DNA of 64,000 nucleotides, from contig CAVVCZ010000001.1 in NCBI GenBank assembly GCA_963746845.1, positions 224,001 through 288,000 on the forward strand, given 5' to 3'. The translations under genes and the position numbers were made by a program. The stretch is from an uncultured Chloroflexia bacterium (GTDB taxonomy: Bacteria; Chloroflexota; Limnocylindria; Limnocylindrales; CSP1-4). How positions within the stretch are numbered: the stretch's first letter is position 1; every line of letters starts with the position of its first letter. Below the pieces are notes generated by a model. The model saw only the letters and a program-made list of their open reading frames with translations, was not told the origin of the DNA and did no database searches. Of this stretch, positions 21,521 to 24,181 are shown in pieces.

Positions 21521-24181
21521 TCAGCCGTGCCCGTGGCCGGCGTGCTCACCGCCGTCCGCGCCATGGCCGGCCGTCAGGGCCGGGACGTGGCCGTTGCCGT
21601 TGCCGTCGTGCCCGTTGCCGGACCCGTCGCCGAGCTCCTTCGCGACGTACGCCGCGACCGATGCCGGGAGCATCGGCAGCAGCCGGGTCGGGGCGACGGG
21701 TCGGCCTGCGGCGGCCGCCCGCTCGGCCCAGTCGCGCTCGCGCCGGATGTAGGTCATCTCGGTCTCCTGGTCGACCGTCGCGAGGGCGATCAGGTCGACC
21801 ATCGGATCGACGCGCGAGGTGTGCGAGAGCTCGAAGTCGCCGCCGTCGCGCAGGGCGTCGTACGGGCACGCGTCGACGCAGATCCCGCACAGGATGCAGC
21901 GGCTCTCGTCGACGTCGTACGTCTGGAGGACGCGCGGCTTCGGCATCAGGGCGCCGGTCGGGCAGGTCTCGGCGCATCGGCCGCACGACACGCACGGGGT
22001 GTCGTTGAGGCTCATGTCGAGCGGCGTCGTGACGAGGGTGTCGAAGCCGATCCGCATGAAGTCGTAGCAGGCCGCCCCGACGACCTCGGAGCAGACCTGC
22101 GCGCACCGGCCGCAGTCGATGCAGCGCGAGGGCTCGCGCAGGATGAACGCGTGCGAGTCGTCCCGGATGTAGTCATGGTTGATGCCCGTGAACCGGTTCT
22201 CGGTCACGCTCCGGTAGCCCGCTCCCTGGTGGTTCTGCGGCTCGAGCGTCTGGAGCGTCGTCCCGTACTCGATCCCGAGACGGCGGAGGTCGCAGAACCC
22301 GATCGCCTCGCAGGTGCACTGGAGACAGCGCGTCGACTCCGCGACGACCTCCTCGCGGGTGTACGGGATCTCGTACTCGATGTAGCTGTCGTTGCGGACG
22401 CTCGCGGGCATCGCCTTCAGGCGGTAGCGGGGCTCCTTCTGCTCGCTCGTGAACGGGACGATCGAGAGGAACTCGGGCTGCGGCTCGGCGAGCTGCTGGC
22501 GGGTCTTGATCTCCGACAGGTCGAGGCCCTTCAGGAAGGCGTCGACCGCGTAGGCGGACCGGCGGCCCTCGGCGACCGCCTGGACGACGGTCGCGGCGCC
22601 GACACGGACGTCCCCGCTCCCGAAGACGCCCGGGCGGTCGGTGAGGAAGGTGACGGCGTCGGCCTTGAGACGCCTGTTCCGGGTCGGCTGCGGGCCTTCG
22701 GAGCCCGGCCCGATCCAGGTGAGCTCCGGGCCCTGGCCGATCGCGAGGAGGACCCGGTCGCACGGGATGACGAACTCGGTCCCCGGGGCCGGCTCCGGCC
22801 GGCGCCGCCCGGACGCGTCCGGCTCGCCCGGCCGGTTCCGGATGAACTCGACCCCGGTGACCTTGCCCTTGGCGTCGGTGATGACCCGCGTCGGGCCCGC
22901 CTGGAAGATCGCCTGGACGCCTTCCTCGATCGCCTCGTGGACCTCGTTCGCCGCCGGCATGTCCTTCATGTCGCGGCGGTAGACGAGGGTCACCTCGGCC
23001 GCGCCCTGGCGGATCGAGGTGCGGCTGCAGTCCATCGAGGTGAACCCGCCGCCGATGACGACGACGCGCTTGCCGGCGTGGCCCGGGTAGGGCAGGCCGA
23101 GGGTCGCCGTTCGGAGGTACTCGAGGCCGTCGAGGACCTCGGCCGCGTCCTCGCCCGGCACGCCGAGCTTGTTCGTGTCGTAGCAGCCGATCGCGATCAG
23201 CACGGCGTCGAAGCCCTGGTTCTGGAGGTCGTCCAGCCCGAAGTCCTTGCCGAGCTCCGCGTTGCAGACCATCTTCCCGCCGAGCCGGGTCACGGATTCG
23301 TACTCGGCCTCGAGGACCTCGACCTTCGGCAGGCGGTACTGCGGGATCCCGTAGCGGAGCATCCCGCCGGGCGCGGCGTCGCGCTCGAAGACGGTGACGT
23401 CGTGGCCCGCGATCAGCAGGTAGTACGCGGCGGCCATGCCGGCCGGCCCGGAGCCGATGACCGCGGCCTTCCGGCCACTCTTCGGCTGGACCTCGAACGG
23501 GATCGGCGGGTCCTCGCCGTCGTCCAGCATCATCTTGATGACCTGGTCGCCGGCGTAGCGATGGGAGTCGCGGATCGCGATCGCCTCGTCGACCTCGTCG
23601 CGCCGGCAGTGCTCCTCGCACGGCGCCGGGCAGACCCGGCCGAGGACGCTCGGGAACGGGATCGTCCGCTTGAAGATCCGGGTGGACTCGCGGAAGTTCG
23701 CCTCGGCGTTCGCCTTCAGGAAGCCCGGGATGTCGATGTGGCTCGGGCACTTGTTCTGGCAGGGCGGCAGGCAGTAGGCGTTGTGGTCCGAGAAGATCAG
23801 CTCGAGGTTCGTCCGGCGGAGACGGCGGACCTCCTCGGTCTGGGTCTTGACGACCATGTCCGGCTCGCACGTCCGCGAGCACGAGATCGGCGGGTGCTCC
23901 TCGCCCGCGACCTCGACGACGCACATCCGGCACGCGCCGAAGCCGGGCAGCTTCGGCTCGTAGCAGAGGGTCGGGATCTCGATCCCGTTGTCGCGGCAGA
24001 CCTCGAGGATCGTCTGCCCCTCGAAGCCCTCGACGACCCGGCCGTCGACCTCGATCCGGATGCGCGGCGACGACTGCGGCCGTTGCGGCGACTGGGTCGT
24101 GATCAGCCGCTCGGCGAGGCTGTCGTCGAACGGCTCGAGCGTGTTCGTTTCGACGTAGGGGCGCGGCAGCAGGTCGGTCAT
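21521..24181 (-). CDS. Fusion: NuoG-like Fe-S domain + GltD-like FAD/NAD(P)H domain + 2[4Fe-4S] + C-terminal half of NuoI
   Basis: [112 protein letters not shown]. Confidence 0.88.

Follow-up and report, generated by a model that had tools for sequence, protein, structure and literature searches.

Electron sources known or proposed for complex I are NADH, F420H2 and ferredoxin. The locus analysed here raises the question of whether a respiratory complex I could be fed with NADPH through a GltD-type flavoprotein, and of how such an inlet would be joined to the pump. The window, a stretch of 64,000 nucleotides from a soil bacterium of the Limnocylindria (Chloroflexota), carries the sole complex I of its genome, as judged by one NuoH match (PF00146) in a 92%-complete genome. 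The protein at the centre of the analysis, termed G*, is probably the electron-input subunit of a distinct respiratory complex I lineage that functions as a proton-pumping NADPH:quinone oxidoreductase. To our knowledge, this activity has been demonstrated for no complex I.

Operon organisation and the divided NuoI

The genes follow the order A-B-C-D-H-[I'::E']-F'-[G*::'I]-J-K-L-M-N, all on the minus strand (Table 1). Pfam matches were obtained for the membrane arm (A, H, J-N) and the Q-module (B, C, D), with NuoI present as two halves. As in the canonical 14-subunit enzymes (Thermus Nqo1-14, E. coli, mitochondrial core), subunits A, B, C, D, H and J-N are all present and look intact. When read in the sequence, NuoB carries the N2-type Cys motifs ACCAME, GDC and PGCPP, while NuoD carries QHPSTHGV and GYLHRGVEK, which we take to be quinone-site motifs. 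The start of nuoA was chosen from the translation, and the stop of nuoH overlaps the start of I'::E' as ATGA. The canonical order has E-F-G between D and H; here, in contrast, the canonical N-module (NuoE, F, G) has been lost, and a three-gene module of the Nfn-ABC/Stn type (Bfu family) is located within a split nuoI.

Table 1. Coordinates of the complex I genes and of the G* domains, in positions of the window
Feature	Position	Strand	Evidence and remarks
nuoA	30453..30818	(-)	Pfam Oxidored_q4
nuoB	29719..30462	(-)	Pfam Oxidored_q6; 247 aa, ~95 aa N-terminal extension
nuoC	29171..29719	(-)	Pfam Complex1_30kDa
nuoD	27933..29174	(-)	Pfam Complex1_49kDa
nuoH	26238..27578	(-)	Pfam NADHdh, E 4.7e-104
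nuoI(N-half)::nuoE' fusion gene (I'::E')	25579..26241	(-)	220 aa; TIGR01971 and PDB matches
F' (NuoF/BfuB core)	24189..25556	(-)	455 aa; Pfam Complex1_51K and NADH_4Fe-4S
G* (StnC/NfnA-like, NuoI C-half at end)	21521..24181	(-)	886 aa
G* residues 40-115, NuoG/HydA-type [2Fe-2S] domain	23837..24064	(-)	Pfam Fer2_4, E 4.6e-19
G* residues 137-552, GltD/NfnB-like unit	22526..23773	(-)	Pfam Fer4_20 and Pyr_redox_2; PDB NfnB, GltD E 1e-65 to 1e-75
G* residues 618-745, CLQCTCx5C then ferredoxin-like 2x[4Fe-4S]	21947..22330	(-)	Alignment to StnC ~590-672 and Nqo3 117-273
G* residues 750-796, NuoI C-half	21794..21934	(-)	TIGR01971 positions 71-115; NuoI/TYKY second-half matches, E about 1e-11
nuoJ	20963..21511	(-)	Pfam Oxidored_q3
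nuoK	20577..20966	(-)	Pfam Oxidored_q2
nuoL	18572..20566	(-)	Pfam Proton_antipo_M and Proton_antipo_N
nuoM	16888..18561	(-)	Pfam Proton_antipo_M
nuoN	15413..16891	(-)	Pfam Proton_antipo_M

NuoI, a single polypeptide in canonical complex I, is here divided over two. Its N-half, with the first CxxCxxCxxxCP motif, occupies residues 9-83 of I'::E', and its C-half, bearing a second such motif of twelve residues, lies near the end of G*, where it is followed by a His/Gly-rich tail of ~90 aa. The model TIGR01971 matches the gene after nuoH over positions 1-66 (52.5 bits) and the G* end over positions 71-115 (48.1 bits). The halves are complementary, jointly cover 111 of the 121 model positions, contain all eight cysteines and match residues 23-87 and 100-143 of TYKY (7ar7_I). 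Nowhere in the genome was a NuoI match above the TIGR01971 cut-off (113 bits) found, and there is no separate nuoI. The C-half at the end of G*, the fusion of the N-half to the N-terminus of NuoE and the lack of a separate nuoI all go beyond what an initial sequence-only reading had noticed.

The remainder of I'::E' (residues ~117-192) corresponds to the N-terminal helical part of NuoE/StnA, and PDB matches divide accordingly between NuoI/TYKY (E about 1e-10, query 9-73) and 9bov_C, StnA and NfnC (query 117-192). Domain and PDB searches found no thioredoxin-like [2Fe-2S] domain. While canonical NuoE carries the N1a cluster, the protein encoded here is reduced to the helical N-terminus without N1a; in relatives of I'::E' a vestige of the [2Fe-2S] domain persists, minus the second Cys pair. 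Complex prediction with the two NuoI halves gave a score of 0.37 against 0.00 for the best control, with runs agreeing on at least 66% of contacts and a partner pLDDT of at least 47. The mark that this pair passed is reached by 116 of 157 solved complexes and by 2 of 215 mismatches, and scores of 0.60 or lower comprise 18 of those 157 complexes together with both passing mismatches. The prediction lends slight support to a pairing of the halves, and the pass may reflect memory of solved NuoI.

Domain structure of the probable input module

The G* open reading frame extends over 21521..24298, and the ATG at 24181 yields a protein of 886 aa, compared with 861-929 aa in homologs. The gene coordinates and motifs quoted in the sequence-only reading were all recovered in the minus-strand translation. 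They include PPCQNKCP (139-146), a twelve-residue motif at 181-192, GSGPAG (243-248, FAD), GGGFTSMD (377-384) and VYRR (400-403, NADPH). The ferredoxin-like region further on contains one motif of eleven residues and one of twelve. G* has the features of GltD/NfnB-type proteins, namely two N-terminal [4Fe-4S] Cys motifs, an FAD Rossmann fold with GxGxxG and a second, NADPH Rossmann fold with YRR. In an alignment of 20 sequences (A3) all Cys motifs are invariant, as is R283, the FAD-site Arg, which corresponds to StnC R239 by hand count on the alignment. All 10 lineage representatives have YRR, and 66 of 67 close relatives have VYRR.

Pfam places Fer2_4 at residues 40-115, Fer4_20 at 137-216, Pyr_redox_2 at 238-539 and a Fer4 dicluster at 723-778, with weak matches to NADH-G_4Fe-4S_3 (122-138) and Fer4_Nqo3 (680-745). 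Thermus Nqo3 (2fug_3) aligns to G* in two stretches, one of which pairs G* 620-782 with residues 117-273 of the chain, and the GltD unit must therefore lie between the HxxxC-bearing N-terminal part and 620-782. Pfam layout and Nqo3 alignment agree with the earlier proposal that a GltD-like unit sits inside a NuoG-like Fe-S domain, after HxxxC. That reading had also noted the loss of the large molybdopterin-like NuoG domain, and the Pfam scan indeed returned no Molybdopterin or Molydop_binding match; canonical NuoG has this domain, whereas G* carries the GltD flavoprotein instead. G* scores 83.9 bits with the NuoG model TIGR01973 (cut-off 470), over residues 43-168 only, and remains under the cut-offs of all NCBIfam GltD-type models (best 540 vs 916). 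An AlphaFold2 model of full-length G* from a 20-row alignment (mean pLDDT 60) was good over residues 40-560 and below 50 over 614-817, and was set aside as a guide to cluster geometry.

The closest solved structures of G* are 9bov_A (1.6e-161), StnC (8oh5_C; 3.9e-139) and NfnA (9n5u_A; 1.2e-136), aligned over residues ~40-775, while PDB matches to NfnB, GltD and DPD range from 1e-37 to 1e-75. For each of the three module proteins, the best solved relatives belong to the same complexes, 9bov (A, B, C), StnABC (8oh5) and 9n5u (NfnA/B/C), which comprise the same three families: a NuoE-like protein, a NuoF-like protein and a NuoG-GltD fusion (PMC10482914). G* has an StnC/NfnA-type layout. In StnC/NfnA the GltD unit has the same insertion point, and the FAD-site Arg, YRR and the Fe-S motifs as far as the ferredoxin-like pair are common to G*. 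StnC K170, described as strictly conserved (PMC10482914), corresponds by hand count to His207 of G*, a residue that never varies among 20 G*-family sequences. Differences are observed at the C-terminus, where StnC/NfnA display an FdhF-like domain and G* displays the NuoI C-half (1172-1178 aa in StnC and 9bov_A, 886 aa in G*). StnC's FdhF-like domain, which has a molybdopterin fold, mediates tetramer formation (PMC10482914).

Further differences from Stn/Bfu enzymes involve the N-terminal [2Fe-2S] and C-terminal 2x[4Fe-4S] clusters of StnB and the A1 [2Fe-2S] cluster of StnA/BfuC, which are absent from F' and E'. Bifurcation has been linked to these additional cluster-bearing domains in StnA and StnB (PMC10482914), and since all of them are missing, no electron bifurcation is expected. 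The earlier suggestion of Stn-type NuoE/NuoF partners consequently holds for homology and fails for Stn-like function. Unlike StnABC, the module, being encoded within a complex I operon, is presumably membrane-bound and non-bifurcating.

F' is closest to 9bov_B (7.4e-95), StnB (8.4e-92) and HydB (matches range from 1e-95 to 1e-91); canonical NuoF matches lie mostly about 1e-65, with M. smegmatis NuoF at 3.3e-79. It scores 313.3 bits with TIGR01959 (nuoF_fam; cut-off 558.65). The alignment to StnB covers only residues 111-527 of 584, and neither the N-terminal [2Fe-2S] nor the C-terminal 2x[4Fe-4S] domain of StnB was found by Pfam or PDB alignment. A ferredoxin-type domain, which we take to be among the InterPro domains that define BfuB, is missing. 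F' displays NGYGADPSSR where NuoF has NADE(S/G)(E/D)PG(T/A)F, and its N3 motif, CGKTIPC, lacks the second Cys, as do 58/58 close relatives; four N3 cysteines are retained in seven of ten lineage representatives. The Gly-rich loop is kept in nine of ten (GHGGGG in the tenth), all ten retain GEE[TS] and an Asp at the position of StnB D186 / Nqo1 E97, and F' keeps RPP[YQ]P. By comparison, NADESEPGTF, GAGF and KPPFP are identical in 3/3 canonical-type paralogs from the same genomes. At these sites F' has Tyr or Met for the NADESEPGTF Asp in 10/10 representatives, and the Phe of PGTF, GAGF and PPFP is kept in 1/10, 3/10 and 0/10, respectively. These Phe positions presumably equate to the NAD+-recognising phenylalanines of Stn. 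In that enzyme, three phenylalanines recognise NAD+ (PMC10482914). NADH input is uncertain because F' is altered at sites invariant in the canonical paralogs, and we infer that F' lies with the [2Fe-2S] cluster on a side branch, which serves mainly as a scaffold or else as a second nucleotide site in modified form.

Conservation of the architecture and separate cassettes

Of the 80 related Limnocylindria loci compared, which are the best 80 of 498 relatives, 49 show the whole order A B C D H IE F G J K L M N; the 498 may include ordinary StnC-like proteins. The remaining 31 loci end at contig edges, and none contradicts the order. Full-length I'::E' fusions occur in 45/45 sampled genomes of the same class, and at least 13 further genomes, from other classes, have them too. 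Six of nine fetched short representative matches end in DHCARL and were discarded as presumed formate dehydrogenases truncated at a selenocysteine codon. One relative without YRR, P0129 (816 aa, 43% identity), shares the NuoI-like motif at its C-terminus; in a tree it clusters with P0241, a fusion of a G*-like protein and a TPP-binding domain.

The module stands apart, together with nuoB, as a cassette of its own in other Chloroflexota, lineages labelled Ktedonobacterales among them; this cassette exactly complements nuo clusters devoid of nuoB and nuoI. Two same-class genomes likewise have a cassette B-D-IE-F'-G* that holds the sole NuoB, together with a separate cluster A-C-H-J-K-L-M-N, in one of which nuoA was undetected. 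Two genomes of other families, whose G* clusters are NCBI-labelled Ktedonobacterales, possess a canonical 14-gene operon and, at separate loci, A-C-D-H, J-K-L-M-N and the cassette B-IE-F'-G*; in a third genome the cassette, A-C-D-H and six antiporter-like genes were seen. Small trees without outgroups place the Ktedonobacteria-type second-set NuoA, D and L with Limnocylindria, away from the canonical set, and are ambiguous for NuoB and H. Cultured carriers are found in Thermogemmatispora, Ktedonobacter, Dictyobacter and Tengunoibacter. Soil metatranscriptome contigs from four runs, two of them seemingly one data set, are 88-99% alike to parts of I'::E', F' and G*, and some span the F'/G* boundary (e.g. 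24109-24503); they derive from relatives, and as RNA libraries may hold DNA they are no proof of expression.

Gene and domain arrangement give good, though indirect, support to a physical attachment of the module to the pump, because the NuoI halves are fused to module proteins and the cassettes carry exactly the missing nuo genes. The proposal that a Stn-like module has been joined to a complex I pump is supported by these two features and by the solved relatives.

Proposed electron entry and its alternatives

If G* is the input subunit, the two NuoI halves would reassemble as a two-cluster subunit, allowing the module to dock on NuoB/NuoD. From the FAD of the GltD-like unit, reduced by NADPH, electrons would travel first over the two [4Fe-4S] clusters of GltD type, next over the His-type cluster and the ferredoxin-like pair in the NuoG-like part, and finally via the reconstituted NuoI clusters and N2 (NuoB) to quinone, driving the A/H/J-N pump. 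The exit branch would be the one that leads in StnC to the vestigial FdhF-like domain. Such an enzyme would in principle be reversible, permitting pmf-driven NADP+ reduction. Motif conservation (YRR, FAD-site Arg) makes NADPH oxidation, or pmf-driven reduction of NADP+, plausible, and in Stn the NADPH:methyl viologen activity resides in StnC alone (PMC10482914). The genome has PntB and a candidate NDH-2, the latter a tentative call as PF22366 (NDH2_C) matched in only 3 of 14 control genomes; with both present, the gene content does not tell whether NADPH has to be oxidised directly or in which direction electrons flow. In a stricter version, F' would be no more than an inactive scaffold and electrons would enter solely at the GltD FAD site; the only complex I of Limnocylindria, and a second one in Ktedonobacteria-type genomes, would then be dedicated to proton-pumping oxidation of NADPH with quinone. 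This is possible but somewhat doubtful.

Alternatively, F' with FMN might oxidise NADH as the main input, with the GltD site as a secondary inlet, or as an outlet at which NADPH is formed at the expense of NADH, as in a membrane-attached, non-bifurcating transhydrogenase. The Gly-rich loop, GEE[TS], RPP[YQ]P, the D186-equivalent Asp and the N3-type motif conserved in F' are in keeping with this, as is the [2Fe-2S] domain that links G* to F', and the aerobes of this whole class, which have no other complex I, presumably need to reoxidise NADH. However, the changes at the NADESEPGTF, GAGF and KPPFP sites, the lost second N3 Cys and the score below the nuoF_fam cut-off speak against it, and the candidate NDH-2 could handle NADH, so that we regard this scheme as unlikely. 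It is more improbable still that the GltD-like site uses NADH in an ordinary NADH:quinone oxidoreductase with an odd flavoprotein. A Rossmann motif is no certain guide to cofactor preference, and P0129 has lost YRR within the same C-terminal layout, but this protein groups with the TPP-domain fusion, YRR and VYRR are nearly or wholly constant among the G* relatives described above, StnC has been shown to bind NADPH, and the PDB molecule names of NfnB, GltD and DPD bear NADPH or NADP. That the module is a soluble Stn-like enzyme merely sharing an operon with an 11-subunit complex I is hardly credible. Its nearest relatives are indeed soluble; yet on this view NuoI would be missing from the genome, each NuoI half is translationally fused to a module protein, separate cassettes always include nuoB, plus nuoD where the membrane locus lacks it, and the FdhF-like domain that serves StnC tetramerisation is absent.

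A literature search, with subscription journals and supplements outside its scope, found no description of this architecture. The nearest printed concepts are the predicted Nuo-Bfu and the GltD-containing Mbx-like operons. According to passages of Schut et al. (2022; PMC9304861), Nuo-Bfu follows the same idea, with a Bfu-family ABC module replacing NuoEFG in a complex I operon, and is predicted in Geobacter, Deferribacteres, Planctomycetes and Nitrospirae. It differs in keeping the full bifurcating BfuBC core and an A-N order with the module in the middle. Those passages define the BfuB set by InterPro domains, list Chloroflexi only under Mbh-, Por- and Fdh-Bfu, and mention neither a GltD/NADPH unit nor a split NuoI for Nuo-Bfu. 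The Mbx-like operons of Thermotoga and proteobacteria, as outlined in part of Degli Esposti (2015; PMC4758237), share a GltD-type NAD(P)H flavoprotein on a complex-I-like membrane module. There, however, the flavoprotein replaces NuoI in an Mbx-type complex that is linked to ferredoxin or sulfur and has no quinone site, in contrast with the split NuoI and full quinone-reducing Nuo set described here.

The division of a core two-cluster subunit over two fusion proteins represents an unusual and testable case of modular evolution. With curated models these genomes seem to lack NuoE, NuoG and NuoI, and the split architecture may lie behind the scoring of Chloroflexi genomes as "lacking complex I, missing only NuoG" in the relevant part of Spero (2015). 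Since cultured carriers exist, biochemistry is feasible. Should the GltD site be the sole entry, the complex would represent a second, independent gain of a nucleotide-input module, by insertion into a core subunit gene, and, if run backwards, it would give trace-gas (H2/CO) oxidisers a direct route from quinol and pmf to NADPH. A GltD-type NADPH inlet, if true, would be a new fuel for complex I and would alter redox-balance models of the Limnocylindria, a group with many genomes from soil metagenomes.

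Domain organization of G* and its GltD unit

The coordinates given by the sequence-only reading contain a single minus-strand gene, which encodes a protein of 886 residues from the ATG at 24181, termed G*, with every motif which that reading quoted present in the translation. Homologs span 861-929 residues among the 120 listed. The Pfam scan detects no molybdopterin domain in G*, in agreement with the proposal that the large molybdopterin-like domain of NuoG is missing. Over residues ~40-775, the closest solved structures are 9bov_A (E 1.6e-161), StnC (8oh5_C; E 3.9e-139) and NfnA (9n5u_A; E 1.2e-136). 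The alignment with Thermus Nqo3 falls into two stretches, of which the printed one pairs query residues 620-782 with chain residues 117-273; the GltD unit therefore interrupts the NuoG-type Fe-S region, as had been suggested.

Coordinates of G*, the NuoI halves and neighbouring genes
Feature	Position	Strand	Source or remark
G* ORF	21521..24298	minus	ATG at 24181, 886 aa
G* Fer2_4	residues 40-115		Pfam
G* Fer4_20	residues 137-216		Pfam
G* PPCQNKCP	residues 139-146		translation
G* [12 protein letters not shown]	residues 181-192		translation
G* Pyr_redox_2	residues 238-539		Pfam
G* GSGPAG	residues 243-248		translation
G* GGGFTSMD	residues 377-384		translation
G* VYRR	residues 400-403		translation
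G* 4Fe-4S dicluster	residues 723-778		Pfam
NuoI C-half	G* residues 750-794		TIGR01971 positions 71-115
G* tail	21524-21790 (residues ~797-886)	minus	after NuoI C-half
F'	24189-25556	minus	NuoF-like
I'::E' gene (holds the NuoI N-half)	26241..25579	minus	220 aa, directly after nuoH; NuoI half at TIGR01971 positions 1-66
nuoH	26238-27578	minus	446 aa
nuoB	29719-30462	minus	
UvrA-like ABC ATPase paralog	12569-14944	minus	just downstream of nuoN

YRR is present in all ten lineage representatives of G*, and R283 is invariant and aligned, counting by hand, with R239 of StnC, a protein that by itself has NADPH:methyl viologen activity (PMC10482914). The GltD unit thus appears, from these residues, to retain features tied to NADPH/FAD chemistry in StnC. 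H207, also invariant, occupies the position aligned with StnC K170, an unusual ligand of the flavin-proximal cluster that is Glu in NfnB (PMC10482914). P0241, a G*-like protein of 1049 residues, carries a C-terminal fusion judged by visual inspection to be a TPP-binding 2-oxoacid:ferredoxin oxidoreductase beta-like domain, and its second Rossmann fold lacks YRR. The tail of G* passes into a low-complexity stretch rich in His and Gly ([11 protein letters not shown]...GHGHG), which is absent, or replaced by another tail, in relatives from other families.

Split NuoI and the complex I operon

A TIGR01971 search of the whole assembly revealed no intact nuoI; the two best matches are complementary halves, both inside the studied operon, corresponding to residues 23-87 and 100-143 of the solved TYKY subunit (7ar7_I). 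The N-half belongs to I'::E', whose start codon shares the sequence ATGA with the stop of nuoH and whose residues ~117-192, beyond the NuoI half, represent the N-terminal helical part of NuoE/StnA. Structure-relative alignment identified no [2Fe-2S] domain in the window I'::E', and some relatives display a remnant lacking the second cysteine pair. At loci L107, L113 and L114 this vestigial thioredoxin-like NuoE domain keeps CxCxxC, while in the window's lineage the domain is deleted, the two states lining up as successive stages of reduction. Modelled as a complex, the two NuoI halves scored 0.37 (best control, 0.00); the runs shared 66% or more of their contacts, and partner pLDDT was 47 or higher. 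Of 157 solved complexes, 116 passed the mark applied, as did 2 of 215 mismatches; only 18 of the 157, together with both passing mismatches, did so with scores ≤0.60. The predicted complex lends weak support to the pairing of the halves, and the pass could be due to memorised structures of NuoI.

The electron route of StnC leads from FAD by way of C7, C6 and the NuoG-type clusters to StnB, while a branch, C1 and C2, leads into an FdhF-like domain and was termed a non-functional remnant (PMC10482914). The NuoI C-half of G* stands in place of that domain, ~10 residues past the ferredoxin-like pair. The StnC-type C1/C2 branch would here have been turned into an exit to the NuoI clusters, N2 and quinone.

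The operon order is nuoA-B-C-D-H-[I'::E']-F'-[G*::'I]-J-K-L-M-N, with gaps of 7-22 bp between the three module genes. Window NuoB and NuoD retain their cluster and quinone-site motifs. PF00146 (NuoH) was found once in the window genome (92% complete), and the operon is therefore its only complex I. The genome also encodes PntB and, tentatively, NDH-2, and two further NuoF-like genes lie in other contexts. One (L014; G000:C6:468900-471800) is a 612-residue NuoE-NuoF fusion; after it comes a short Fe-S protein, FdhA/NuoG-like, that stops at a Molybdop_Fe4S4 domain, and a molybdopterin-domain ORF lies 5 kb upstream. These genes could represent an NAD-dependent formate dehydrogenase that is split or has been misassembled. 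The other (L015; G000:C6:86700-89600; 485 residues, motif NGAEGEPLSA) adjoins a ferric-reductase-like membrane protein and ApbE. Compared with relatives from two other families, whose tblastn matches split at this point, NuoH contains a ~75-residue insertion, roughly residues 310-385. NuoB has a ~95-residue N-terminal extension ahead of its Oxidored_q6 domain that might help dock the foreign module. The UvrA-like paralog lies between two glyoxalase-family genes; the remaining window genes are ordinary housekeeping ones.

The NuoF-like subunit F'

F' is nearest to 9bov_B, StnB and HydB. It has neither the N-terminal [2Fe-2S] nor the C-terminal ferredoxin domain of StnB type, and bifurcation is therefore not expected. 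NADESEPGTF, GAGF and KPPFP are found in each of three canonical-type paralogs encoded by the same genomes, whereas ten F' representatives display N-[AGL]-[YM]-[DGE]-[AS]-D-... instead, retaining the Phe of PGTF in one, of GAGF in three and of PPFP in none. These ten retain GEE[TS], an Asp at the position of StnB D186 and the Gly-rich loop, which in one of them reads GHGGGG. Four N3 cysteines persist in 7/10; in three Limnocylindria families the second is Thr or Ala, with a His beside the fourth. Loss of this cysteine (to Thr, Ser or Ala, in the window and at L113 and L114) accompanies the new His (LCAHE, LCHLE), and lineages with four cysteines show LCGFG at that site; the loss and the His may together constitute a ligand swap. 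F' is thus modified yet not clearly dead, which is the chief source of doubt over the nucleotide that feeds the pump.

Conservation, complementary loci and relation to known systems

A scan of species-representative genomes identified 80 related loci (89-99% identity in the junction region), by title all Chloroflexota or Limnocylindria metagenome-assembled genomes, a few otherwise labelled. The whole gene order is present in 49, the remaining 31 being cut by contig ends and none contradicting it. Within these loci, VYRR and both final Cys motifs of G* are kept in 66 of 67 near-complete matches, the I'::E' motif in 50/50, and the second N3 cysteine of F' is lost in 58/58 (Thr 46, Ser 12). Among 401 genomes sampled across the phylum, full-length I'::E' occurs in 45/45 other genomes of the window's class (four families) and, in other classes, in no fewer than 13 genomes from three families; six unpublished genomes enter these tallies alone and underlie none of the conclusions. 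All genomes sampled from the window's class share the architecture, which occurs in other classes too.

In two same-class genomes of a fourth family, a cassette nuoB-nuoD-I'::E'-F'-G* carries the genome's only NuoB, with C-H-J-K-L-M-N as a separate cluster; one genome of the pair also showed nuoA upstream of that cluster. Three other-class genomes were examined, the G* clusters of two of the three families bearing the NCBI label Ktedonobacterales. Two have a canonical 14-gene operon with intact nuoI and, additionally, separate loci A-C-D-H, J-K-L-M-N and nuoB-I'::E'-F'-G*; in the third, the cassette, A-C-D-H and six antiporter-like genes were seen. The loci being complementary, the cassette always supplies exactly the genes missing from the membrane-arm loci, and this strongly indicates that a second, distinct lineage of complex I has the module as its peripheral-arm head. 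Second-set NuoA, NuoD and NuoL are nearer to the window proteins than is the canonical set (NuoD identity 44-45% versus 37-38%); A, D and L follow this pattern in small trees that lack outgroups, with B and H ambiguous there.

None of the three module proteins reaches a curated NCBIfam cut-off. Compared with StnABC, the module lacks the FdhF-like domain and K170, and compared with the StnABC/Bfu core it lacks clusters B2/B3/B4/A1. By gene set the operon qualifies as a complex I, apart from NuoE, F, G and I, each of which departs from the canonical form. As far as the accessible portions of these papers extend, split NuoI and the cut-down module distinguish the window system from the predicted 'Nuo-Bfu' (PMC9304861) and from GltD-containing Mbx-like operons (PMC4758237), and Spero et al. 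describe Chloroflexi genomes 'missing only NuoG' (PMC4453560). Searches of openly available full-text articles found no published description of this architecture. The NuoI-half fusions, conserved operon and cassette complementarity support the earlier proposal of a Stn-like module grafted onto complex I. NADPH-driven pumping, or its reverse, is a plausible function on the basis of these sequences. G* homologs 74-78% identical to a cassette G* (L108), annotated merely as 'FAD-dependent oxidoreductase', occur in named cultured species of Thermogemmatispora, Ktedonobacter, Dictyobacter and Tengunoibacter; since carriers include such Ktedonobacteria-type species, the architecture is directly testable.
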